Sequence record: OR352941.1
From: Escherichia phage AV111
Length of the DNA: 64,000 nucleotides
Reading direction: 5' to 3' (one strand)
Each line of letters begins with the position of its first letter. Within the stretch, counting starts at the first letter, position 1. The translations under genes and the position numbers were made by a program. The notes beneath the pieces were generated by a model. That model was given only the letters and a program-made list of their open reading frames with translations, made no database searches and was not told the DNA's origin. Of this stretch, positions 34,838 through 57,732 are shown one piece after another.

Positions 34838-35994
34838 TCCGGGTACCTCAAAGCGTCATCAGAGTTAGTTATATCAATAATAGATATAGAGTTTTCTGCT
34901 AACCCGTTTTTAGATAATTGACGTTTATAATATCTTTCACAATATGTACACGTCGTCCCGCAGATTTCATTAGCACAATCGAAATCTGGATGTCTGAACC
35001 ACCTTTTTTCTAAAAAGCCATCTAACAAAGAGGTTTCAATATTTACTGTATGTGAAAACTCAGTTTCGTTTTCAAGAGTGAAAATAGTCTCTAAAGGCTT
35101 CCACAGTTCTAACAAATTACCTTCAAACTTTTCAGAAGCGTATGCTTCAAGAACTTTCAAAATGTAGTCTGTGCTACCTGTACGTCCTGAAACTTTGAAT
35201 TGAGTGATACCAATATCATTATAAAGTTTCAAATCTTGAGGACGAACAAAACGAGTTCTCAACCAGTTAAATGGGTCTGTATCACGAGCTTTAATACAGT
35301 GCTGCATAGGATATCCGTTTAAGGATTTAGCATCATCAGCTGTAACATCAGTACTATGGAAAATATAGCAAGAGTCACGATAGCTACAATGTGTTGTATA
35401 CCCTTTACCAGCATTAGAACAGAACTCATTTACAAGAACTTCAAATATTATATTGTTCTTATTGCAAAACTCTGCTGCACGCTTCAGGAAAGAAACTGAA
35501 CGGTTCTTATGAATTCCACAGCAGACCTTTTTGATATTATATTGGTCATGCAAGTATTTGATTTGAGTTACAGCATCGACATGTAGAATTGTTGAAACTT
35601 CAATCTCAATGTCTTTATTGACTTCACGAACAATTTCCATAACAACAGGGTTAGCGATAGTAATACGCCATACGCCTATTGACCAAAGATACTGAACATA
35701 ATCCTGAATAGCTTTCTTCTTCCACTCAACTAGTTCTCTTTTTGAACCAGGATTTATCGTGTTGAGTGTATAGTTAAAGCAAATACCTAATTCGTTACAA
35801 CGTTTAACGTAATCTTCTAACATCTTTTTGTCAACGTCAGGAAGCCTAAAATCAGGTCTGGCTGCTACAAAAGCCATTTCTCTTGTAGAGCCGTATACTT
35901 CGTTTATCAAGCTATTAGGATAGGTTTTATTGAGCTCTACGATTTTATCAAGAAGAGCTAAATCAAAATTCGTTCCGATTTTAAAAGTATTCAT
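34834..35994 (-). CDS. Cys-cluster protein (386 aa), possible Fe-S enzyme
   Basis: C-terminal CX4CX3CX2C cluster and an EFCSNAGKGYTTHCS segment reminiscent of the peptidase U32 signature. Confidence 0.5.
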   Translation of the reverse strand: MNTFKIGTNFDLALLDKIVELNKTYPNSLINEVYGSTREMAFVAARPDFRLPDVDKKMLEDYVKRCNELGICFNYTLNTINPGSKRELVEWKKKAIQDYVQYLWSIGVWRITIANPVVMEIVREVNKDIEIEVSTILHVDAVTQIKYLHDQYNIKKVCCGIHKNRSVSFLKRAAEFCNKNNIIFEVLVNEFCSNAGKGYTTHCSYRDSCYIFHSTDVTADDAKSLNGYPMQHCIKARDTDPFNWLRTRFVRPQDLKLYNDIGITQFKVSGRTGSTDYILKVLEAYASEKFEGNLLELWKPLETIFTLENETEFSHTVNIETSLLDGFLEKRWFRHPDFDCANEICGTTCTYCERYYKRQLSKNGLAENSISIIDITNSDDALRYPE

Positions 35995-42714: not shown

Positions 42715-43677
42715 TTATTTCCAAGTCAGTTCGCAGGTCAGTTGAAGAAGCATATACATAACATGTAATTCAATATTACTTGCTAATCCATGAAATTTAT
42801 TATTTTCGCCTGCGATTTCATAAAGCGAAATAATACTTTTACCAGGTGCAACTTGGTCATAACATTCTGAAACTAATTTATCGATGAACCATGAATAATC
42901 TGCGGCATATTTTGGAGCTAATGCACGAAGCTGTTTGATATCTTTGTTCTTCATTGCTTCGATAACATCATCTACCGTGCCACGATCATTGGTTACAATC
43001 GACAAAATACCTGCATCAAGAACACCTTTAGACGAGTACCTGTCTAATTGACCAATTGTACGTCGAAAGTCCGGGAAGTTCTTTTTAACCAGAGCTGCAA
43101 CAACTTTCATATCAGCGATTTCGATATTTTCGTTCTTACAGATTTCAACCATGCGATGAATCATTTTCTTCATCATTGAGATTTTATCTTCTTCGGTTGG
43201 ACGTCCGAATTCGATAACTCGACAACGACTACGTAATGGTTCAATAATTCCATCGATGTTGTTGGCAGTAATAATAATAGAACAGTTACTAGAGAATTCT
43301 TCCATGAATGTACGAAGGTGACGTTGTGATTCAGCGAGGCCACTACGGTCAAATTCATCGATAACAATAACTTTAGGCTTGCCTTCCATTGAGACTGAAC
43401 GAGCAAATGCAGTTAACGGACCGCGTACAAAATCAATTTTACAATCAGAACCGTTGACGAACATCATTTCAGCGTTGATATCGTTACATAGTGCTTTTGC
43501 CACGGTTGTTTTACCGGTACCAGGAGATGGAGAGTGTAAAATAATATGAGGAAGTTTTCCTTTAGATACTAAAGACTTGAATGTTTCATGGTCATACGCA
43601 GGCAGAATACATTCGTCAATGGAAGAAGGACGATATTTCTGTTCTAGAATGTGCTCTTTGGAATTGATAGTAATCAT
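42715..43677 (-). CDS. 44: clamp loader large subunit gp44 (AAA+)
   Basis: 320 aa; Walker [11 protein letters not shown]; matches T4 gp44. Confidence 0.95.
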
Positions 43678-43752: not shown

Positions 43753-44439
43753 TTAGAAGTCGTGAGTAGAATCGGCTTCCATTGCAATAACATAACTTAC
43801 TTGAGAGCTTTCAAACTTGGCTGCAACTTTATCACCAGCTCCCCACAACATTACTTTATAGTTACCTGGCTGGATTTTCATATTAGCCATATTGATTACG
43901 AAGTTAAAGTTGTTAGAACCATCATAATCGGTAAGAGTCAAAGAATACTTAGGACGAGTTAGTCCGGAATCTTCAACTTTATTATAGCCATTGATAACAA
44001 TTTTACCATCTTTATTTGTAATAGCAATTATATCAATCTGAAGACCACGTGAAACTCGAAGCAATTGTTGAAGGTCTTCAGCTTTAATTTCAGTAATCAC
44101 AGAAGCCACTGGGAATTGAATTGGCTTATTAGGAAAAACAATGGTGCTCTTGTCAGCGGCAGGCCAATAAACTGTGGAACGTGTATCTGCAATTTTAATA
44201 TTGCCATCGGTGTGCATTGAAATTTCAGCATCATCGGACACTAGACTCAAAATGCTTAAGAAGCTATTCAAATCATAAAGTGCTACGTCAAAATCAATTT
44301 CATCAGAGATATTTGCTTCCGCATAAGTGGTGCCATTAACTGCACGAGTCATAATAAATTTACCTTGACTAAGCAGAATGCCAGAGTTAATAGAAGCGAA
44401 GTTTTTCAGAATATTTACGGTTTCACGGCTAAGTTTCAT
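43753..44439 (-). CDS. 45: sliding clamp gp45
   Basis: 228 aa; near-identical to T4 gp45 as recalled. Confidence 0.95.
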   Translation of the reverse strand: MKLSRETVNILKNFASINSGILLSQGKFIMTRAVNGTTYAEANISDEIDFDVALYDLNSFLSILSLVSDDAEISMHTDGNIKIADTRSTVYWPAADKSTIVFPNKPIQFPVASVITEIKAEDLQQLLRVSRGLQIDIIAITNKDGKIVINGYNKVEDSGLTRPKYSLTLTDYDGSNNFNFVINMANMKIQPGNYKVMLWGAGDKVAAKFESSQVSYVIAMEADSTHDF

Positions 44440-44711
44440 TTAGGTTTCCTATTAGCATAATAATTTGTCCAAGACCGGATAGCACCTTGGTATGATTCAT
44501 CATTAAAACCATGCTGAATTGCATGTTTTCTAAATGTAATATAACTTGGTTTTCCTAAAGCAATCCACAATTCCTTTAATTTTTGTTCATGAAATATCCA
44601 TGTACCTCTAGCTTTAGATTTTCTGAATTTATCCTTAAATTCTTTGGTTGCATTTCTTTTCGAAGCTGCGATAGAGGCCTTTGCTCTATTTTCAGGTTTA
44701 GACCAATACAA
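44436..44711 (-). pseudogene. ORF without any ATG; resembles a Seg endonuclease C-terminal module; possible frameshifted remnant (or rpbA-region gene)
   Basis: track start is TTG and there is no internal Met; by-eye similarity to the C-terminal part of the Seg protein at 56441..57262. Confidence 0.3.
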
Positions 44712-45325
44712 TGTTTTAGATATTTTATTTTATCTTTAACATTAGGAGAATTCATTATATCTTTAAATTTTAAAGCAAAATCTCTATCGCTAAACATTTT
44801 TTTAGAACGAATAGAAACTTTCTCTCTTCGTTCTTTGGTCCAATATGTTTTTTGAAATTCTCTAATTGCGTTTAAATGATTCTCCGACAATTTGCAATTT
44901 TTTCTAACACCGACGTAATCTTCATTTATTTCGTTTTTAGAAAGTTTTACTATTTTGCCTGTTTTTAAATTTTTATACGGTGCATATCCTTTAGCTGATA
45001 TTCTAGACTTCTCGTTAGCATAAGCCTTATTAAAATATTTTTCATTTGAAACGGCTTTAACATTGAGTTGGAATAGTCTTTCTATTCTTCTAGGGTCTAA
45101 TGTGGTTTCGCCTAAAATTTTTACAGAATATTCGCCTTGGTCTATTAATCTGTTATATAAAGGAGAATACGAGGAATTAACACTACCGGTATATATTTTA
45201 CCGGTAGAATCTTCAATAATATCCTTTCCATTAAAATGACACGAAACTTTAGAACCTATATAATAACACGGGTATTCATTTTTAATCTCACGATTATAAA
45301 AGGTTATAAGATATATTAAATTCAT
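44576..45325 (-). CDS. Seg-like GIY-YIG homing endonuclease
   Basis: N-terminal YYIGSK...NGKDII...YTGS motif; ATG at 45325; inserted between 45 and 46 regions. Confidence 0.6.
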   Translation of the reverse strand: MNLIYLITFYNREIKNEYPCYYIGSKVSCHFNGKDIIEDSTGKIYTGSVNSSYSPLYNRLIDQGEYSVKILGETTLDPRRIERLFQLNVKAVSNEKYFNKAYANEKSRISAKGYAPYKNLKTGKIVKLSKNEINEDYVGVRKNCKLSENHLNAIREFQKTYWTKERREKVSIRSKKMFSDRDFALKFKDIMNSPNVKDKIKYLKHCIGLNLKIEQRPLSQLRKEMQPKNLRINSENLKLEVHGYFMNKN

Positions 45326-45330
45326 AATTA

Positions 45331-45747
45331 TCAAGCAGCAACCATCTGCTTTTTAATAGCTTCAGGCAGTGATTCAATATATTCTGGAATTTTAGAAGCA
45401 ACAATTTCGCCAGCTGCAATTAGTTGTTCGTCGGCATCAACACAGTAAAAATCTTCAAGGCGTTCAGAACCGTCTTTATCAAGAACGATTTTAGCACCTG
45501 CTTCGATAGAATCTTTATAGTGCTTACGCATCAAATGAATCCACATATCAGACACATCGTTATCAATAAAACCATAAATCATAAAACGAGTTTCTTGTGG
45601 CAAAGATTGGAGTTTTTTAGCACTTGCGTCATCACAATGCAGGACCCATGCTTTACGAACACGATTATGGTTATGCGGGTTAGCGTCAGTACGGATAGAA
45701 GTAACTTTCAGATCAGCAGCGGTAAAACCTTTAGCAGTAGTAAACAT
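45331..45747 (-). CDS. hypothetical protein (138 aa)
   Basis: ORF in track. Confidence 0.5.
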   Translation of the reverse strand: MFTTAKGFTAADLKVTSIRTDANPHNHNRVRKAWVLHCDDASAKKLQSLPQETRFMIYGFIDNDVSDMWIHLMRKHYKDSIEAGAKIVLDKDGSERLEDFYCVDADEQLIAAGEIVASKIPEYIESLPEAIKKQMVAA

Positions 45748-45759
45748 ATTATTTCTCTC

Positions 45760-45960
45760 TTATTCGTAGAAGTCGGTAACTGTCCATGCGGAATTGCGAT
45801 TAGACATTATTTTATTATACTCATCTTTAAAAGCAGATTTGAGCATTTGTTCAGTGACAATATGTTCTTCACCTGAAAACGTATTGGTCAAAACATATTT
45901 TTTAATTTCAGGGACAACGAGAAGATGTTGTCCAGTTGAATACTCCATGTTGTTCTCCAT
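45760..45960 (-). CDS. hypothetical protein (66 aa)
   Basis: ORF in track. Confidence 0.4.
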   Translation of the reverse strand: MENNMEYSTGQHLLVVPEIKKYVLTNTFSGEEHIVTEQMLKSAFKDEYNKIMSNRNSAWTVTDFYE

Positions 45961-46002: not shown

Positions 46003-47691
46003 TTATGAAACAGTCATTACAGTAAATCGTCCAACTTTGCTCATTTGCAAATGTTGTCCATAACGTTGAGGGTCATGGTCCCTATGAGAAATAATGAACA
46101 CGTTAGTATTTTGTAAACTTCCAAGAATGGTATCTATAGCCTTAACAGCTTCAGAATCAACTGCCCCATCAAAAACCTCATCAAGAATCAGAGTGTTGAT
46201 TTTAACACCAGAGACCTTTTCAGCAATATCTCGCCATGTAAACAACAACGCGATATCAATGCGTGCTTTTTCACCTTGACTAAATGAAGCATAACTAAAA
46301 TCTTCACGACCACGTGATTTTATAGATTCATTGAATTCTTCATCAATAGAAAACACGTAATCAGCTTCCATAATTTTAAGATAATGGTTAATCTGCTTGT
46401 TGAACAGAGGCACATATTTTTTAATGATAGCACCTTTAATACCAGAATCTTTTAACATATCTGTGATAATACCACGATGGTATTTTTCAAGAACGATATC
46501 CGATTTTGTTTTAATGATTTTATCAAGTTCTTTTTGAAGCAAAGCTATCTCATCGGCATGGTCGATAAATTCTGCTGAGGCTTGCTCTATTGCAGCTTTA
46601 ACTTTCTTAGCTTTATCAATAGTGGCAATCATTGCTTGTTTCTTGGTACGAATATCGGATGCAAGGTCCTGCTTAGTCTTAACATTAGCTCTATATTCGT
46701 CCACTAGGACACTCAGATTATCTCTGTGACAGGTAAGTTGCTCGAATGAGTGATTACATTCATGAAGCTTATCGGTAATCTTAGAGACAATAGGGTCACC
46801 CTGGTGCAATTGTGATGCACAAGTAGGACATGTGCCACCGTCATGATACATCTTAATAACTTTGTTATATGAGTCGATTTTAGATTTAATCAAGAATGCT
46901 TCTTGTCCTATCTTGTTGAATGCCTCAGTAGGGTCTTCATCAAGAACGATATTAAGTAGTCGCTCATTAGCTTCTTCGATTTCTGCTTTTAATGAACGAG
47001 CTTCTTTGGCTAGGTCGTCATACATATTCTGTAGACGCGCTACATTATCACCAGATAATTTCTTTTGACGTTCGATATTCTCGTTATAAATCTTAATTTG
47101 TTGGATAACACCATCTTTCTTGGCATCAAGAACTTGTCCCTGAGAATTAAGTTCGCGAACTTGAGACTTATTGATTTTATCCATTTCAGCGAGTGTGCCG
47201 ACTTCTAAAAGGTCTTCGACAAGTTTTCTACGAGCAGGGGTGCTAAGAGCCATGAAAGGGGTATACCCTGCCGTCCCAAGCACAACGATCTGTTTAAAAG
47301 ACGCGTATGACATTCCGATGCTACGTTCAAATTCTTCTTGGAAGTCACGACTGCTGGCAGATTCATCAAGACGAACACCGTCAACGGAGATTTCGAAAAT
47401 ATTGGGCTTTTGGCCTCGTTTAATGAAGTATTTTTTATCATCGAATTCCATCCAAAGCTCAACTAAGAGCTCTTTCTTGTTCGTGCTATTAATGATTTGT
47501 CCTTTCTTAACATCACGAAATGGTTTACCGAAAAGTCCGAAAGTAATGGCTTCTAACATCGTAGATTTACCACCGCCATTTTTACCGGTGATTAAGGTCT
47601 TTTGGACTTTATCTAATTGGATATCGATAGGATTCCCACCTACCGACATGATGTTTTGATAACGAACACGATTTAATTTAAATGATTTCAT
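46003..47691 (-). CDS. 46: recombination endonuclease subunit gp46 (Rad50/SbcC-like)
   Basis: 562 aa; Walker A GKNGGGKST; matches T4 gp46. Confidence 0.95.
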   Translation of the reverse strand: MKSFKLNRVRYQNIMSVGGNPIDIQLDKVQKTLITGKNGGGKSTMLEAITFGLFGKPFRDVKKGQIINSTNKKELLVELWMEFDDKKYFIKRGQKPNIFEISVDGVRLDESASSRDFQEEFERSIGMSYASFKQIVVLGTAGYTPFMALSTPARRKLVEDLLEVGTLAEMDKINKSQVRELNSQGQVLDAKKDGVIQQIKIYNENIERQKKLSGDNVARLQNMYDDLAKEARSLKAEIEEANERLLNIVLDEDPTEAFNKIGQEAFLIKSKIDSYNKVIKMYHDGGTCPTCASQLHQGDPIVSKITDKLHECNHSFEQLTCHRDNLSVLVDEYRANVKTKQDLASDIRTKKQAMIATIDKAKKVKAAIEQASAEFIDHADEIALLQKELDKIIKTKSDIVLEKYHRGIITDMLKDSGIKGAIIKKYVPLFNKQINHYLKIMEADYVFSIDEEFNESIKSRGREDFSYASFSQGEKARIDIALLFTWRDIAEKVSGVKINTLILDEVFDGAVDSEAVKAIDTILGSLQNTNVFIISHRDHDPQRYGQHLQMSKVGRFTVMTVS

Positions 47692-54165: not shown

Positions 54166-54636
54166 TTAATCATGTTTCCACACCCCATCGGTATTTGACC
54201 AAAGTCGCTGATTATCTGATCCTCGCCACAGCTTTTTAGTCGGAAGATTTTTCTCATACTTCCCATCAATAATAACATCAACATATTTAAGCATTTCTAG
54301 TTGTTTAATATCTTCAAACTTATATCCTGTCCACAACCAAATGCTTTTATTGGGATAAAGATTTTTTACTGTTTGAACAATGCAATGAATAACATCTCGA
54401 TTATCAGGATAGAGAGGGTCTCCTCCGGTTATAGTCAATCCTTCTATATAATCGTTATTCAAACATTCAATTAATTGTTCTAGTGTTTCACCAGTGAATG
54501 GAATACCATTTCTAGCATTCCATGTTGATTTATTATAGCACCCTTCACATTTATGCAAACAACCTGTAACGAAAAGAACGACCCTGCATCCAGGGCCATT
54601 CACAAAATCGCAAGGATAAAATCTATCATAATTCAT
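54166..54636 (-). CDS. nrdG: anaerobic ribonucleotide reductase activating protein NrdG (radical SAM)
   Basis: 156 aa; CX3CX2C motif CLHKCEGC near the N-terminus; synteny with nrdD. Confidence 0.9.
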   Translation of the reverse strand: MNYDRFYPCDFVNGPGCRVVLFVTGCLHKCEGCYNKSTWNARNGIPFTGETLEQLIECLNNDYIEGLTITGGDPLYPDNRDVIHCIVQTVKNLYPNKSIWLWTGYKFEDIKQLEMLKYVDVIIDGKYEKNLPTKKLWRGSDNQRLWSNTDGVWKHD

Positions 54637-56450
54637 TGGTGTTTAACCCTATGCATGATTTCTTTATTTTTGCCGAGATTAAATCCGCGTTCGTTCGGGT
54701 TTCCCAAATAACCGCATGTTCTTCTTATGGTGTTCATCTTTTTAGGATCAGTTTCTCCGCAAACTGAACAAACAAATCCGTTTTCAGTAGGAGTCATTTC
54801 ATGGGTACTTCCACATGTAAAACATTTATCTACTGGCATATTAACACCAAAATAATCTAAATGTTGTGCAGCATAATCCCACACGGCCTCAAGTCCTTTT
54901 AAGTTATTTTTCATATCAGGAAGTTCAACATAAGAAATGTGACCACCTGTCGCAATGAAATGATATGGCGCTTCACGAGAAATCTTTTCAAACGGAGTAA
55001 TATTTTCTTCTACTGAAACGTGGAAACTGTTAGTGTACCAGCCTTTATCGGTAACATCTTTTACACTTCCATATTTTTCTGTATCGAGTTTACAGAAGCG
55101 ATAACAAAGGTTTTCAGCAGGAGTAGAATACAAACTAAAAGCAAAACCAGTTCTTTCAGTCCACTGCTTAAGATGAGCATTCATTTTAGTTAAAATTTCT
55201 TGCCCAATATCACGGCCGACAAGAATATTCAATTCGTGAATACCAATGTATCCTAAAGACACTGAACTTCTACCGTTTTTAAATAACTCAATTATGTCGT
55301 CATCAGGTTTAAGACGAACCCCGAATGCACCTTCTTGGTAAAGAATAGGAGCTACAGTTGCTTTAACTCCTTTTAAGGAACTAATTCTACACATCAAAGC
55401 TTCAAAACACAGGTCCATTCGTTCGTTAAATAGCTCAACAAATTTCTGTTCATTGAACTGTGTTCCAATATAAGAATCTAACGCAATACGAGGAAGATTC
55501 AGTGTTACAACACCAAGATTATTACGTCCATCAAGAATTTCATTACCAGTCGAATCTTTCCATACGCTCAAGAAACTACGGCAACCCATTGGAGAAACTG
55601 GAACTGAAGAACCGGTAATAGCTTTATTATTCTTAACCGAAATAATGTCAGGATACATTCTTTTGCTTGCACATTCTAACGCAAGTTGTTTAATATCATA
55701 GTTTGGATCATCTTTATAAAGATTAACACCTTCTTCAACAAACATAACAAGTTTAGGAAAAATAGGAGTTATTCCATCACGACCAAGACCTTTAATGCGG
55801 TTTTTAAGAATTGCCTTCTGAATCATTCGTTCAGTCCAATCGGTTCCCGTACCAAATGTAATTGTTACAAAAGGAGTTTGTCCGTTTGAACTAAAGAGAG
55901 TGTTTACTTCATATTCATAAGCTTGGAATGCATCGTATACGTCTTTTTCTGTTTTAGATTGAGCATAATTCAACGCGTCAGCGATTTGCCATTTTTCTGC
56001 ATCTTCAACATGTTTAGCGTATGTACGTTTAACATAAGGAGAAAGAACTTTATCGACATTCGCAAAAGTCGTTCCGCCGTATTGGTGTGAAGCAACTTGT
56101 GCAGTAATTTGTGCCATAATTGCAGTAGCAACACCAATCGATTTAGGCGTTTCAATTTGAGCATTGCCTAATTTAAATCCGTTCTCAAGCATCCCTTTTA
56201 AATCTACTAAACAACAATTAGTAAAAGGCAATGATATACTGTAATCTAAATCATGAAAATGAATTAACCCGGCATTATGAGCATTTACAATATGGCTTGG
56301 AAGAATACTGCAAGCGATATGTTTAGAAACAATACCGGCCATTAAATCTCTTTTTGTTGGAAAGACACGAGAATCTTTGTTGGCGTTTTCGGTATTTAAT
56401 TCTTTATCTTTATTTGAAATAAAATTTAAAACATCTTTCTCTAAAGACAT
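54633..56450 (-). CDS. nrdD: anaerobic ribonucleoside-triphosphate reductase NrdD
   Basis: 605 aa; C-terminal glycyl-radical motif RTCGYLG; uninterrupted ORF. Confidence 0.95.
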   Translation of the reverse strand: MSLEKDVLNFISNKDKELNTENANKDSRVFPTKRDLMAGIVSKHIACSILPSHIVNAHNAGLIHFHDLDYSISLPFTNCCLVDLKGMLENGFKLGNAQIETPKSIGVATAIMAQITAQVASHQYGGTTFANVDKVLSPYVKRTYAKHVEDAEKWQIADALNYAQSKTEKDVYDAFQAYEYEVNTLFSSNGQTPFVTITFGTGTDWTERMIQKAILKNRIKGLGRDGITPIFPKLVMFVEEGVNLYKDDPNYDIKQLALECASKRMYPDIISVKNNKAITGSSVPVSPMGCRSFLSVWKDSTGNEILDGRNNLGVVTLNLPRIALDSYIGTQFNEQKFVELFNERMDLCFEALMCRISSLKGVKATVAPILYQEGAFGVRLKPDDDIIELFKNGRSSVSLGYIGIHELNILVGRDIGQEILTKMNAHLKQWTERTGFAFSLYSTPAENLCYRFCKLDTEKYGSVKDVTDKGWYTNSFHVSVEENITPFEKISREAPYHFIATGGHISYVELPDMKNNLKGLEAVWDYAAQHLDYFGVNMPVDKCFTCGSTHEMTPTENGFVCSVCGETDPKKMNTIRRTCGYLGNPNERGFNLGKNKEIMHRVKHQ

Positions 56451-57262
56451 AATTCTAATTTATCCTTTTGAAATTCTTCGTCTAAATATGGGTTCCAACC
56501 CATTTTAAACCTTTTGATGAAATTATCAATTCTAAATTTCGGTAAGTTTAAATCCGCAAAAATAGATGATTTACTTTTAAAATCTGGACCTAAATAATCA
56601 TATAAAATTTCTGCGTATTTTAACCATAATATATAAGTACCAGATTTAATTGCTCTCGGAGTTTTCCAAGGTTTTACACCATACATCGGATTTCCACTTC
56701 CTTTATGCCTGATAGAAGATGAAATTCCAATTTTAATTTTAGCTTCCTCTGTATGCGAAAATCCATGATGTGGATTTTCTTTCCAGTATTTTTTAGAAGC
56801 TTCTGATATTTTCTTTCTGGCTAAATTAGTATGATGCTTTCCATAAAATCCATGATTTTTACCTTTATTACGATTTCTTTTAATCATGGTTATTGATTGC
56901 TTTTTTCTAGTTTCTTTAGAAGGAGAAACACCATACGTTGTAAATTGACCATTAGCATATGCTAAATTAAAATACTCTTTATTCCATATATCTTTTTCTA
57001 TATTCTTTTGAAATTCAGCTTCAATGCTAGTTATTTGCTCATCTCCGACTAATTGAAAATATAATATTTCAACTTTCGGCGTTTCTTTCAACAGGGCTTT
57101 TTGAAATTCGGAAGATGACGAAGACGAATAATAAAATTTACCATTTTTATCAATAATATTCGTTCCGTCAAAAGTGCAATTAGTTTTACTTCCAATGTAA
57201 TAATATGGCGGGGTTTTAGCATTAATTCTATTAATAAATGATAGTTTATATACTACATTCAT
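56441..57262 (-). CDS. Seg-like GIY-YIG homing endonuclease
   Basis: YYYIGSK...NGKFYY N-terminal motif, NUMOD-like repeats; ATGA overlap with gene 49 stop and overlap with nrdD start. Confidence 0.7.
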   Translation of the reverse strand: MNVVYKLSFINRINAKTPPYYYIGSKTNCTFDGTNIIDKNGKFYYSSSSSSEFQKALLKETPKVEILYFQLVGDEQITSIEAEFQKNIEKDIWNKEYFNLAYANGQFTTYGVSPSKETRKKQSITMIKRNRNKGKNHGFYGKHHTNLARKKISEASKKYWKENPHHGFSHTEEAKIKIGISSSIRHKGSGNPMYGVKPWKTPRAIKSGTYILWLKYAEILYDYLGPDFKSKSSIFADLNLPKFRIDNFIKRFKMGWNPYLDEEFQKDKLELCL

Positions 57263-57732
57263 TTTAAACTCTTTCTAAGCTGCTTTTTGAATGAAGCTAT
57301 TAATTGTGTTTTAGTATCAGATTCATTATATTCAAATCCTCTTTGAAGCATCTCAGCCATCATTTCCTCTTTGCCTAGTCTTGAGAACTCTTTAGTTTTG
57401 TCTGGAACAAAATTAGGATGGATATTATTATCAGAATAATCTTGTTTCAAATAAGCAAGAAGAGCTTCAAGCCATTCGAGGTAGTCAACATCACGTCCTT
57501 TAAGACCGGAACGATTGAACTTATGCTTCATTTGGCCTTCTGCTGCGTTGCACAGAGAACAGAGTAACCCACGAACTCTACCGGCTTTTGGCCCGTTTAA
57601 TTCGTGGTCGTGGTCAAGATGGTTACCTTGAACATCAGGGTCTAATTCACGGTGGCAAATAGGACACTTACCATTCTGTGCATCATAAAATTTTTGTTTT
57701 TCTTCTTTGTATAATTTGCCAGATAATAACAT
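57259..57732 (-). CDS. 49: endonuclease VII gp49 (Holliday junction resolvase)
   Basis: 157 aa; near-identical to T4 gp49 as recalled. Confidence 0.95.
   Translation of the reverse strand: MLLSGKLYKEEKQKFYDAQNGKCPICHRELDPDVQGNHLDHDHELNGPKAGRVRGLLCSLCNAAEGQMKHKFNRSGLKGRDVDYLEWLEALLAYLKQDYSDNNIHPNFVPDKTKEFSRLGKEEMMAEMLQRGFEYNESDTKTQLIASFKKQLRKSLK

Follow-up and report, generated by a model that had tools for sequence, protein, structure and literature searches.

A SegG-like homing endonuclease gene between rpbA and gene 45 of a T4-like phage, split by a probable single-base deletion

In Escherichia phage AV111 (OR352941.1), a Mosigvirus-type T4-like phage, two overlapping open reading frames (ORFs) lie between rpbA and gene 45. 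Are they a complete endonuclease gene and the remnant of another, or one gene that has been broken, and if so, was it broken in the phage or only in the sequence record? We analysed the locus within a window of 64,000 nt, the whole stretch of DNA considered here. A first-pass annotation of its letters had described a Seg-like GIY-YIG gene overlapped by a methionine-free frame, and had read the pair as a frameshifted or duplicated endonuclease. The ORF check agreed on two overlapping minus-strand ORFs in different frames (44576..45334 and 44436..44711, sharing about 136 nt), and translation confirmed that the 91-aa frame starts at TTG and contains no ATG codon; it also lacks a ribosome-binding site of its own. 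The features of the locus are as follows.

45331..45747, minus strand: rpbA (RNA polymerase binding protein), from the ORF, the annotation in relatives and PF10789 (Phage_RpbA) on homologous contigs
44576..45325, minus strand: 5' part of the split homing endonuclease gene, 249-aa frame (GIY-YIG domain, linker and helical repeat 1)
44723..44726, minus strand: frameshift site, A4 for A5, GATAAAATAAAA[A]TATCT, from the alignment with six relatives carrying the gene and frame arithmetic
44436..44729, minus strand: 3' part of the split gene, -1 frame (helical repeat 2 and conserved C-terminal module)
43753..44439, minus strand: gene 45 (sliding clamp), the intact downstream neighbour, from the ORF and annotations in relatives

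The endonuclease gene forms an insert of about 890 bp on the minus strand that separates rpbA from gene 45. Its ATG at 45325, from which the 249 aa are counted (the listed ORF begins at a TTG), follows the rpbA TGA stop after 5 nt. Past the frameshift, this frame reads about 47 codons out of register before it stops at 44576-44578, while the -1 frame is open from 44729, upstream of the TTG of the listed 91-aa ORF. The two open frames share 151 A-rich nucleotides, and a -1 shift is needed to join them. The stop of the 3' part overlaps the gene 45 start (ATGA), and gene 45 aligns with that of JK42 without indels.

All six gene-carrying close relatives in the alignment have A5 on the gene strand where the AV111 stretch has A4, and the intact translation runs through the region as ...NVKDKIKISKTLYWSK.... 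A single uninterrupted 296-aa ORF spans both frames in five close relatives (AV116, FL31, AV109, AV114 and AV118) and is also unbroken in three metagenome contigs encoding P0001. The two overlapping frames are one homing endonuclease gene, split by deletion of a single A from an A5 run. Because one A is missing at 44723-44726, the 3' third of the gene is shifted into the -1 frame, and translation ends at 249 aa without the second repeat and the C-terminal module; the truncated product might keep some residual activity. The single-ORF relatives, the one missing A and the empty sites described below bear out the earlier suggestion of a frameshifted endonuclease in the rpbA region upstream of gene 45. 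Annotators should join both ORFs into one frameshifted (pseudo)gene encoding a SegG-like GIY-YIG homing endonuclease, in place of two hypothetical proteins.

In a minority of T4-like phages the junction between rpbA and gene 45 (rpbA|45) is taken up by a free-standing homing endonuclease gene (HEG), the one that is split in AV111, and its insertion is polymorphic. Carriers account for 9 of 197 Mosigvirus-type, 25 of 521 Tequatrovirus-type and 3 of 34 Gaprivervirus-type records, and in every carrier the HEG lies at the rpbA|45 junction; rpbA directly adjoins gene 45 in most related phages. The HEG flanks are 95-99% identical to empty sites, and the gene is present or absent at this one fixed site among near-identical genomes. 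Homologues with 49-63% identity occupy the same junction in Tequatrovirus, Gaprivervirus and metagenomic phages. The G+C content of the HEG is 29%, compared with 37% for the window. Our literature search found no description of an endonuclease at rpbA|45, and a review of T4 mobile elements mentions neither rpbA nor gene 45 (PMC2988022). The family comprises uncharacterised free-standing endonucleases at rpbA|45 in at least three Tevenvirinae genera and in unclassified metagenomic T4-like contigs.

Uninterrupted, the gene encodes 296 aa, in which a GIY-YIG nuclease domain of the SegG type is followed by a linker, two tandem helical repeats of about 46 aa and a C-terminal three-helix module. The N-terminus bears IYLITF...YYIGS, with L-I-Y at aa 3-5 and Y-Y-I-G-S at aa 21-25, which gives the two beta-strand motifs about 10-15 residues apart that mark the GIY-YIG group, and the catalytic domain (aa 1 to about 140) has the GIY-YIG alpha/beta fold. 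The GIY-YIG motif noted in the first pass for 44576..45325 agrees with a match of the N-terminus to phrog_7504 'homing endonuclease' (E 1e-16) and with the match to T4 SegG. Across 10 homologues Y5, Y22, I23, G24, S25, E82 and N99 are invariant, and E82 (..IERLFQ) and N99 (YFNKAYA) are also conserved in SegG. The catalytic residues of I-TevI are E75, N90 and R27, the last placed after the YIG strand. Motif similarity suggests that E82 and N99 are equivalent to E75 and N90, the MAFFT alignment with I-TevI being poor. No arginine in aa 26-80 is invariant across the family, R60 of the Mosigvirus protein being E, E or S in other clades; the lack of an R27-like arginine may be a trait of this divergent subgroup, of which the experimentally active SegG is also a member.

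Among curated families, only PHROG homing-endonuclease families match the intact protein, the 91-aa frame matching phrog_655 (E 1e-7). At E <= 1 it matches no Pfam family, the GIY-YIG model included; an NCBIfam scan gave no match, to TIGR01453 or otherwise, and PDB sequence searches with the protein and with a profile of the C-terminal module returned only noise. Because the Pfam GIY-YIG model misses the protein, its nuclease activity is predicted from homology to T4 SegG, an experimentally active endonuclease, and site-specific cleavage is putative by the same analogy. NUMOD3 (PF07460) was not found in the rpbA|45 endonuclease even at E <= 1; it is present in the protein encoded at 56441-57262 of the window (E 1e-8) and in the distant homologues P0026 and P0154. 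The tandem helical repeats may be distant relatives of NUMOD3.

44613..44887 (approximate), minus strand: tandem duplication of a helical module of about 46 aa, aa 147-192 and 193-238 of the intact protein, found with hhalign

The sub-alignments of the two repeats match each other with a probability of 97.4% (E 1.2e-11, hhalign), and the frameshift falls early in the second copy. The repeat escaped BLASTP of the 91-aa against the 249-aa frame and was found only by profile-profile comparison. A structure model predicts the region to be all-helical, and some proteins match it in three to four stretches. The short DNA repeat that had been noticed near 44700 and 44840 is present (CCAATACAATGTTTT at 44703-44717 and CCAATATGTTTT at 44840). 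It is weak at the DNA level, and its CCAATA..TGTTTT segments (44703-44717 and 44840-44853) encode the K-T-(L)-Y-W of each copy. The internal protein repeat is old and family-wide, not a local duplication. The best-conserved part of the family is the C-terminal module of about 55 aa (RGTW...LW.ALGKP.Y..FRK.A..HGFNDESYQGAIRSW.NYY.NRK.K), which also occurs in HNH and other GIY-YIG endonucleases and is presumably DNA-binding.

This architecture bears on the other reading offered by the first-pass annotation, a duplicated remnant. On this view a complete, shorter GIY-YIG gene would be followed by what is left of a second endonuclease, a relative of the 56441..57262 protein, in the 91-aa frame. Both the 91-aa frame and the 56441..57262 protein match phrog_655, and repeats do exist, a short one in the DNA and another within the protein. 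However, the phrog_655 match, the sole link between the two, is indirect and involves overlapping parts of a heterogeneous profile, and the proposed likeness to the C-terminus of the 56441..57262 protein disappears on direct comparison: BLASTP gave E = 4, the family profile aligned with residues 1-164 only, and a profile of 14 C-terminal-module sequences matched with a probability of 0.1%. The C-terminus of that protein aligns with SegG instead. What survives of the idea that the frame resembles the gene's own C-terminal module is the internal tandem repeat, which is family-wide and old. In all intact members, across four clades, the 91-aa part is in frame as the protein's own C-terminus; intact orthologues show it to be the gene's own 3' third, with no second copy, and we rejected the duplication, to which we give next to no credence. 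Programmed recoding is another way of accounting for the frames, with -1 ribosomal frameshifting or transcriptional slippage joining them to yield a low, regulated amount of full-length enzyme. The -1 direction of the shift, the A-rich overlap and the suitability of low expression for a toxic nuclease would agree with it, but the 151-nt overlap contains no X XXY YYZ slippery heptamer and an A run of 4 nt is too short for efficient polymerase slippage. Further, there is no conserved recoding site, since the frameshifts of other broken copies vary in position and sign. With the heptamer absent and the gene in a single frame in close relatives, we also rejected this very improbable reading.

A harder question is whether the phage itself carries an intact gene and the A is missing only from the record, through a homopolymer error of sequencing or assembly. 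The difference is one base in an A5 run, most other broken public copies also show homopolymer length changes, and one of these records (ESh24) is flagged 'UNVERIFIED' in GenBank; in addition, the public gene catalogue holds no exact copy of the truncated 249-aa protein. We consider such an error possible but doubtful. Against it, about 45 kb aligned to JK42 contain no second frame-breaking indel in coding regions, and a lone random error landing in the HEG is a priori unlikely because only 10 of the window's 290 A/T runs of 5 or more (about 3%) lie there. Six independent frameshifts are seen in the family, including the AV111 copy, five of them in A/T runs and two in the same A7 run; in AV115 this type of change takes A7 to A11, an unusual size for a miscall. 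Among the aligned relatives all frameshifts fall inside the dispensable HEG, rpbA and gene 45 on either side being free of them, a pattern that points to relaxed selection more than to random error. Intact and independently broken copies also coexist among genomes about 98% or more identical over the aligned locus. From these observations we infer a biological indel, and the reading that we favour is that the rpbA|45 HEG was probably inactivated in AV111 by genuine slippage, in the decay phase of a selfish gene. What the locus shows is not a new type of element but decay of an ordinary and recurrent sort, or possibly a slip in sequencing. The rpbA|45 HEGs offer a handy natural series on HEG decay with persistence, and leave current concepts unchanged.

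If the intact enzyme cleaves DNA, the adjacent start of gene 45 is where its target may be sought.

44414..44450, minus strand: gene 45 initiation region (AGGAAA at 44445-44450, ATG at 44437-44439) and the first 26 nt of gene 45, candidate recoded (cleavage-immune) site

In genomes with the HEG, the insert supplies the gene 45 ribosome-binding site and codons 3-11 of gene 45 are recoded. The first 26 nt of the gene differ at 12 positions from those of HEG-less Mosigviruses, and this exact 5' allele is confined to the 9 HEG-carrying Mosigvirus-type records. Tequatrovirus carriers show 13 differences in nt 7-33 and none in the next 87 nt, and Gaprivervirus carriers 7 differences in nt 9-21; the clusters in the three clades are limited to about nt 7-33 and followed by near identity. 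The changes include a synonymous Ser switch (TCT to AGY) plus AAA to CGT, TCT AAA being retained in the Tequatrovirus HEG-carrying allele. The HEG-less Yersinia phage MHG19 shares its gene 45 5' allele with the HEG-carrying contig L010, so the HEG-type allele is not strictly tied to HEG presence; the MHG19 allele could reflect HEG loss or ancestry. Judged from the sequence, the substitutions may confer immunity to cleavage, and the sharply bounded recoded segment near the sliding-clamp start codon is a candidate target.

The endonuclease gene appears to be a promoter-less cassette that itself contains candidate signals for its neighbour.

44538..44564, minus strand: MotA-box middle-promoter-like motif ATTGCTTTA-N12-TATATT, inside the endonuclease 3' end, about 100-125 nt upstream of the gene 45 ATG
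44754..44779, minus strand: second MotA-box-like motif TTTGCTTTA-N11-TATAAT, inside the endonuclease gene

The motif at 44538..44564 recurs in L008, L010 and VR26 without any change of position (-129 relative to the end of the gene), although synonymous changes surround it, and perfect matches to this type of motif number only 7 on the gene strand and 2 on the other strand of the window. It is a candidate embedded promoter for gene 45. The second motif is conserved in L008 and VR26 but not in L010 or L016. The endonuclease start has no Shine-Dalgarno sequence, and in other clades it overlaps the rpbA stop (ATGA/GTGA). No perfect match to the late-promoter TATAAATA was found in the region, sigma-70 promoter-like sequences were fewer than expected from shuffling, and RNA structure around the endonuclease start was insignificant (z = 0.15). 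Separately, three terminator-like hairpins were counted against 0.9 expected, one of them inside the endonuclease gene.

On the model of T4 SegG and the other Seg enzymes, the enzyme would cut a HEG-less allele during mixed infection at the 5' end of gene 45 or close to it, and repair from the HEG-carrying genome would copy in the HEG with short flanks, HEG-carrying alleles being protected by their recoded codons 3-11. Slippage in the A5 run would then inactivate a dispensable selfish gene, marking the decay phase of the HEG life cycle, and we propose that the broken DNA persists on account of the gene 45 expression signals that it now contains. A more elaborate and improbable reading treats the A/T runs of the endonuclease as a reversible on/off switch, a population-level phase variation in which the nuclease would be silenced by homopolymer slippage, because the DNA that supplies the gene 45 ribosome-binding site and MotA-type promoter cannot be deleted, and could revert when HEG-less competitors are met. 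More modestly, this uncharacterised Seg-type family may target the first sliding-clamp codons and drive marker exclusion there.

Among known systems, T4 SegG is the closest in its nuclease domain, with 38% identity over aa 1-136 and common motifs (MN.VY..tF...PpYYIGSK...GK.Y.sS...E..Q..v.a.N..YFN.aYA). Like segG, the rpbA|45 gene appears to be a promoter-less cassette just upstream of an essential replication gene. They differ in locus (59|32 for segG), in length (210 aa against 296 aa for the intact rpbA|45 protein) and in the C-terminal half, where the tandem helical repeats and the W..LW..G.P...FRK.A..G..D.SYQ module cannot be aligned with the SegG C-terminus. SegG is experimentally active, whereas the rpbA|45 family is known from sequence and its AV111 copy is frameshifted. 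With another locus and a similarity limited to aa 1-136, we rejected orthology with SegG; only the nuclease domain is SegG-like. Both endonuclease coding regions harbour expression signals of the neighbouring gene, the promoters of gene 32 being located within segG according to the T4 review (PMC2988022) and the signals in the rpbA|45 HEG being predicted from motifs.

The gene at 56441-57262 (between nrdD and gene 49; 'SegG homing endonuclease' in JK42) has a homologous catalytic domain (31% identity over 192 aa, E 2e-13; hhalign probability of 99% against the rpbA|45 family profile over residues 1-164), and both genes are free-standing and abut or overlap their neighbours. The 56441-57262 protein is intact and has NUMOD3 repeats and a SegG-like C-terminus, a region unrelated to that of the rpbA|45 protein by direct comparison. 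I-TevI of the T4 td intron would share the same two-part plan, with an N-terminal GIY-YIG domain, a linker and a C-terminal helical DNA-binding region. In contrast to the free-standing rpbA|45 gene it is intron-encoded; the rpbA|45 protein has no Pfam GIY-YIG or NUMOD match and no conserved R27-equivalent arginine, and the DNA-binding modules differ. The T4 review (PMC2988022) discusses degeneration as a phase in the life cycle of homing endonucleases, a second paper (PMC2790892) names it in its title, and the disabled AV111 HEG fits this phase. One parallel is the defunct I-TevIII of the T4 nrdB intron, likewise a disabled endonuclease ORF whose DNA persists, whereas the AV111 lesion is a single-base homopolymer frameshift that is revertible in principle.

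A frameshifted Seg-like endonuclease gene lies between rpbA and gene 45 of phage AV111, and the copy in the window has decayed (or been mis-sequenced); the element itself is of a known kind. The window is about 98% identical to the Mosigvirus group of T4-like phages (megablast), and the minus strand carries every gene of this region, from gp44 to gp46:

42715-43677, minus strand, gp44 clamp loader
43753-44439, minus strand, gp45 sliding clamp
44436-44711, minus strand, 91-aa frame
44576-45334, minus strand, ORF of the 249-aa frame, with its ATG at 45325
45331-45747, minus strand, rpbA
45760-45960, minus strand, gene 45.2
46003-47691, minus strand, gp46

The first-pass annotation had described two overlapping ORFs here, the shorter free of ATG codons, and a short DNA repeat; all of these are present, the repeat as CCAATACAATGTTTT at 44703-44717 and CCAATATGTTTT at 44840. 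The 249-aa frame begins MNLIYLITF...YYIGSK. The 91-aa frame, at -1 relative to it, is open from 44729, has TTG as its sole possible start and lacks initiation signals of its own. In the close relatives AV116, FL31 and AV109, and by tblastn in AV114 and AV118, the insert is one 296-aa ORF across both frames, as it is in three metagenome contigs. Alignment with six relatives carrying this homing endonuclease gene (HEG) showed that the window is missing one A of an A5 run (44723-44726, gene strand GATAAAATAAAA[A]TATCT; intact translation ...NVKDKIKISKTLYWSKPEN...). Because the relatives encode one intact ORF and a single A is missing, the 91-aa frame is the gene's own 3' third and no separate element. 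The frameshifted, inserted endonuclease of the first-pass annotation is thus borne out, and its alternative of a duplicated remnant is refuted.

The missing A is probably a real mutation, judging from the sequence comparisons. Over about 45 kb aligned to the HEG-less Mosigvirus JK42, no other indel breaks a coding frame, and homopolymers differ in length only between genes, near 35994 and 36028. These differences (T8 versus T7 and T10 versus T5 in this Shigella phage) sit between a U32-peptidase-like gene and its upstream neighbour. The window has 290 A/T runs with a length of at least 5, and just 10 of them fall in the endonuclease gene; in the aligned stretches, the essential genes on either side hold no frameshift. 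Further, five more independent frameshifts occur in the family:

G2285, A7 to A6
JM17/FL18, A6 to A7
AV115, A7 to A11
ESh24, T6 to T7
EC121, CC to CCC

A sequencing error, with the gene intact in the phage, is the less probable account, and a doubtful one; it draws on the facts that all frameshift events but one are homopolymer changes, that the ESh24 record is marked UNVERIFIED and that no second copy of the exact truncated protein was found. Programmed frameshifting could also join the two frames, but this is unlikely: the 151-nt overlap has no slippery heptamer, relatives use a single frame, and the other broken copies are shifted at different sites and with different signs.

The intact protein has no match in Pfam or NCBIfam. 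Two PHROG families labelled 'homing endonuclease' do match it, PHROG 7504 in the N-terminal ~135 residues (E 1e-16) and PHROG 655 in the 91-aa frame (E 1e-7), and residues 1-136 match T4 SegG at 38% identity (tblastn), an experimentally characterised GIY-YIG homing endonuclease (PMC2988022). Y5, Y22-I-G-S25, E82 and N99 are invariant across ten homologues, among which no conserved Arg equivalent to I-TevI R27 was found. Beyond the nuclease domain the protein is helical, and one module there is duplicated in tandem, as residues 147-192 and 193-238 (hhalign probability 97%, E 1e-11), which accounts for the DNA repeat, since both of its copies encode K-T-(L)-Y-W. The best-conserved part is the last ~55 residues (RGTW..LW.ALGKP.Y..FRK.A..HGFNDESYQGAIRSW.NYY.NRK.K). 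HNH endonucleases and other GIY-YIG endonucleases also end in this module, some of them in two copies.

The predicted 249-aa product would retain the nuclease domain and the first repeat and lose the second repeat and the conserved C-terminal module. The specificity of I-TevI resides in its C-terminal DNA-binding region, and by analogy the product has most likely lost site-specific cleavage activity.

The first-pass annotation had also likened the 91-aa frame to the C-terminus of a second Seg-like protein (56441-57262), and this likeness did not hold (BLASTP E = 4; profile probability 0.1%); that C-terminus aligns instead with the C-terminus of SegG. The two endonucleases share a homologous catalytic domain, with 31% identity (E 2e-13) and an hhalign probability of 99% over residues 1-164. 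The second gene, free-standing, intact and on the minus strand, lies between nrdD (54633-56450) and gene 49/endonuclease VII (57259-57732), overlapping both; its protein carries NUMOD3 repeats (Pfam E 1e-8). The JK42 record names its counterpart 'SegG homing endonuclease', at a locus different from T4 segG.

The flanks match 197 phage records, and 9 of these have the insert of ~850 bp; in the rest a 42-nt spacer separates rpbA from gene 45. Among 5.8 billion proteins, full-length matches form only four 90%-identity clusters (99, 63, 60 and 49% identity), and the genes all sit between rpbA and gene 45 and meet both neighbours in ATGA-type overlaps. Similarly, in a phage collection without the window's own genome, all 37 records with a full-length homologue (Mosigvirus, Gaprivervirus VR26 and TH15, and about 22 Tequatrovirus) have it at this junction; 25 of 521 Tequatrovirus-type and 3 of 34 Gaprivervirus-type records have the element. 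The gene of VR26 and TH15 actually starts at a GTG that overlaps the stop of rpbA, and only a shorter ORF is annotated. The VR26 annotation (KP007362.1), a 210-aa 'putative DNA endonuclease', is probably N-terminally truncated, since a full 295-aa homologue (1117-2004) is open from that GTG (GTGA). Two stand-alone catalogue fragments of the family, P0006 (139 aa, C-terminal, profile positions 157-295) and P0007 (126 aa, N-terminal, positions 1-125), probably come from metagenomes, either as additional split or truncated copies or as pieces cut off at contig ends. Some records already carry the annotation '(putative) homing endonuclease', and our literature search found no paper describing an endonuclease at this junction; the family is uncharacterised, yet already sequenced and partly annotated. 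The gene's G+C content is 29%, against 37% for the window.

Each HEG-carrying allele was compared with its closest HEG-less relative. Apart from the replaced spacer, differences fall only in the final one or two rpbA codons and in a dense cluster where gene 45 begins: 12 in nt 9-26 for the window versus NBG1 (three across the following 94 nt), 13 in nt 7-33 for the Tequatrovirus allele L016 versus Nami (none across 87 nt) and 7 in nt 9-21 for VR26 versus VR25 (one across 129 nt). Codons 4-5 change from TCT AAA to AGY CGT in three clades; the synonymous Ser switch takes more than one base change and so points to selection at the DNA level. The exact Mosigvirus gene 45 allele is confined to the nine records with the HEG. 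This pattern fits homing with protective target changes, falling short of proof; against it, the Tequatrovirus HEG-carrying allele retains TCT AAA, and Yersinia phage MHG19, which is HEG-less, shares the allele of HEG-carrying contig L010. The two agree in all of the first 39 nt of gene 45 (MHG19, OQ331036.1, 2001-2039; L010, 4876-4914). MHG19, which has no endonuclease at the rpbA-gene 45 junction, could descend from a carrier that lost the element and kept the recoded allele; a different 'homing endonuclease' lies on the opposite strand between its genes 46 and 45.2.

The endonuclease ATG follows the rpbA stop by 5 nt, with no Shine-Dalgarno sequence or significant local RNA structure at this start. 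A perfect 9-bp stem hairpin within the coding sequence (45183-45207, minus strand, CTACCGGTA-N7-TACCGGTAG, codons S-T-G-K-I-Y-T-G-S), flagged by a terminator scan and without a real T tract, could be a processing element, an attenuation element or chance. At its other end, the endonuclease gene overlaps the ATG of gene 45 with its stop codon, and its last codons contain the AGGAAA of gene 45. Two perfect MotA-box/-10 motifs lie inside the gene (44564 and 44779), and the whole window has only seven on the gene strand and two on the other; three further clades keep the 44564 motif in exactly the same place, although synonymous changes surround it. In the Tequatrovirus phages T4 and Nami, the spacer that the insert displaces opens with a MotA box of its own (TTGCTTTA), followed by TATAAAAT (406-460); the Mosigvirus empty site lacks one in the 470 nt upstream of gene 45. 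The native gene 45 promoter layout therefore differs between genera hosting the same family. These embedded, putative gene 45 signals offer a possible reason why broken copies are kept and not deleted, and they have a parallel in segG, which carries gene 32 promoters (PMC2988022).
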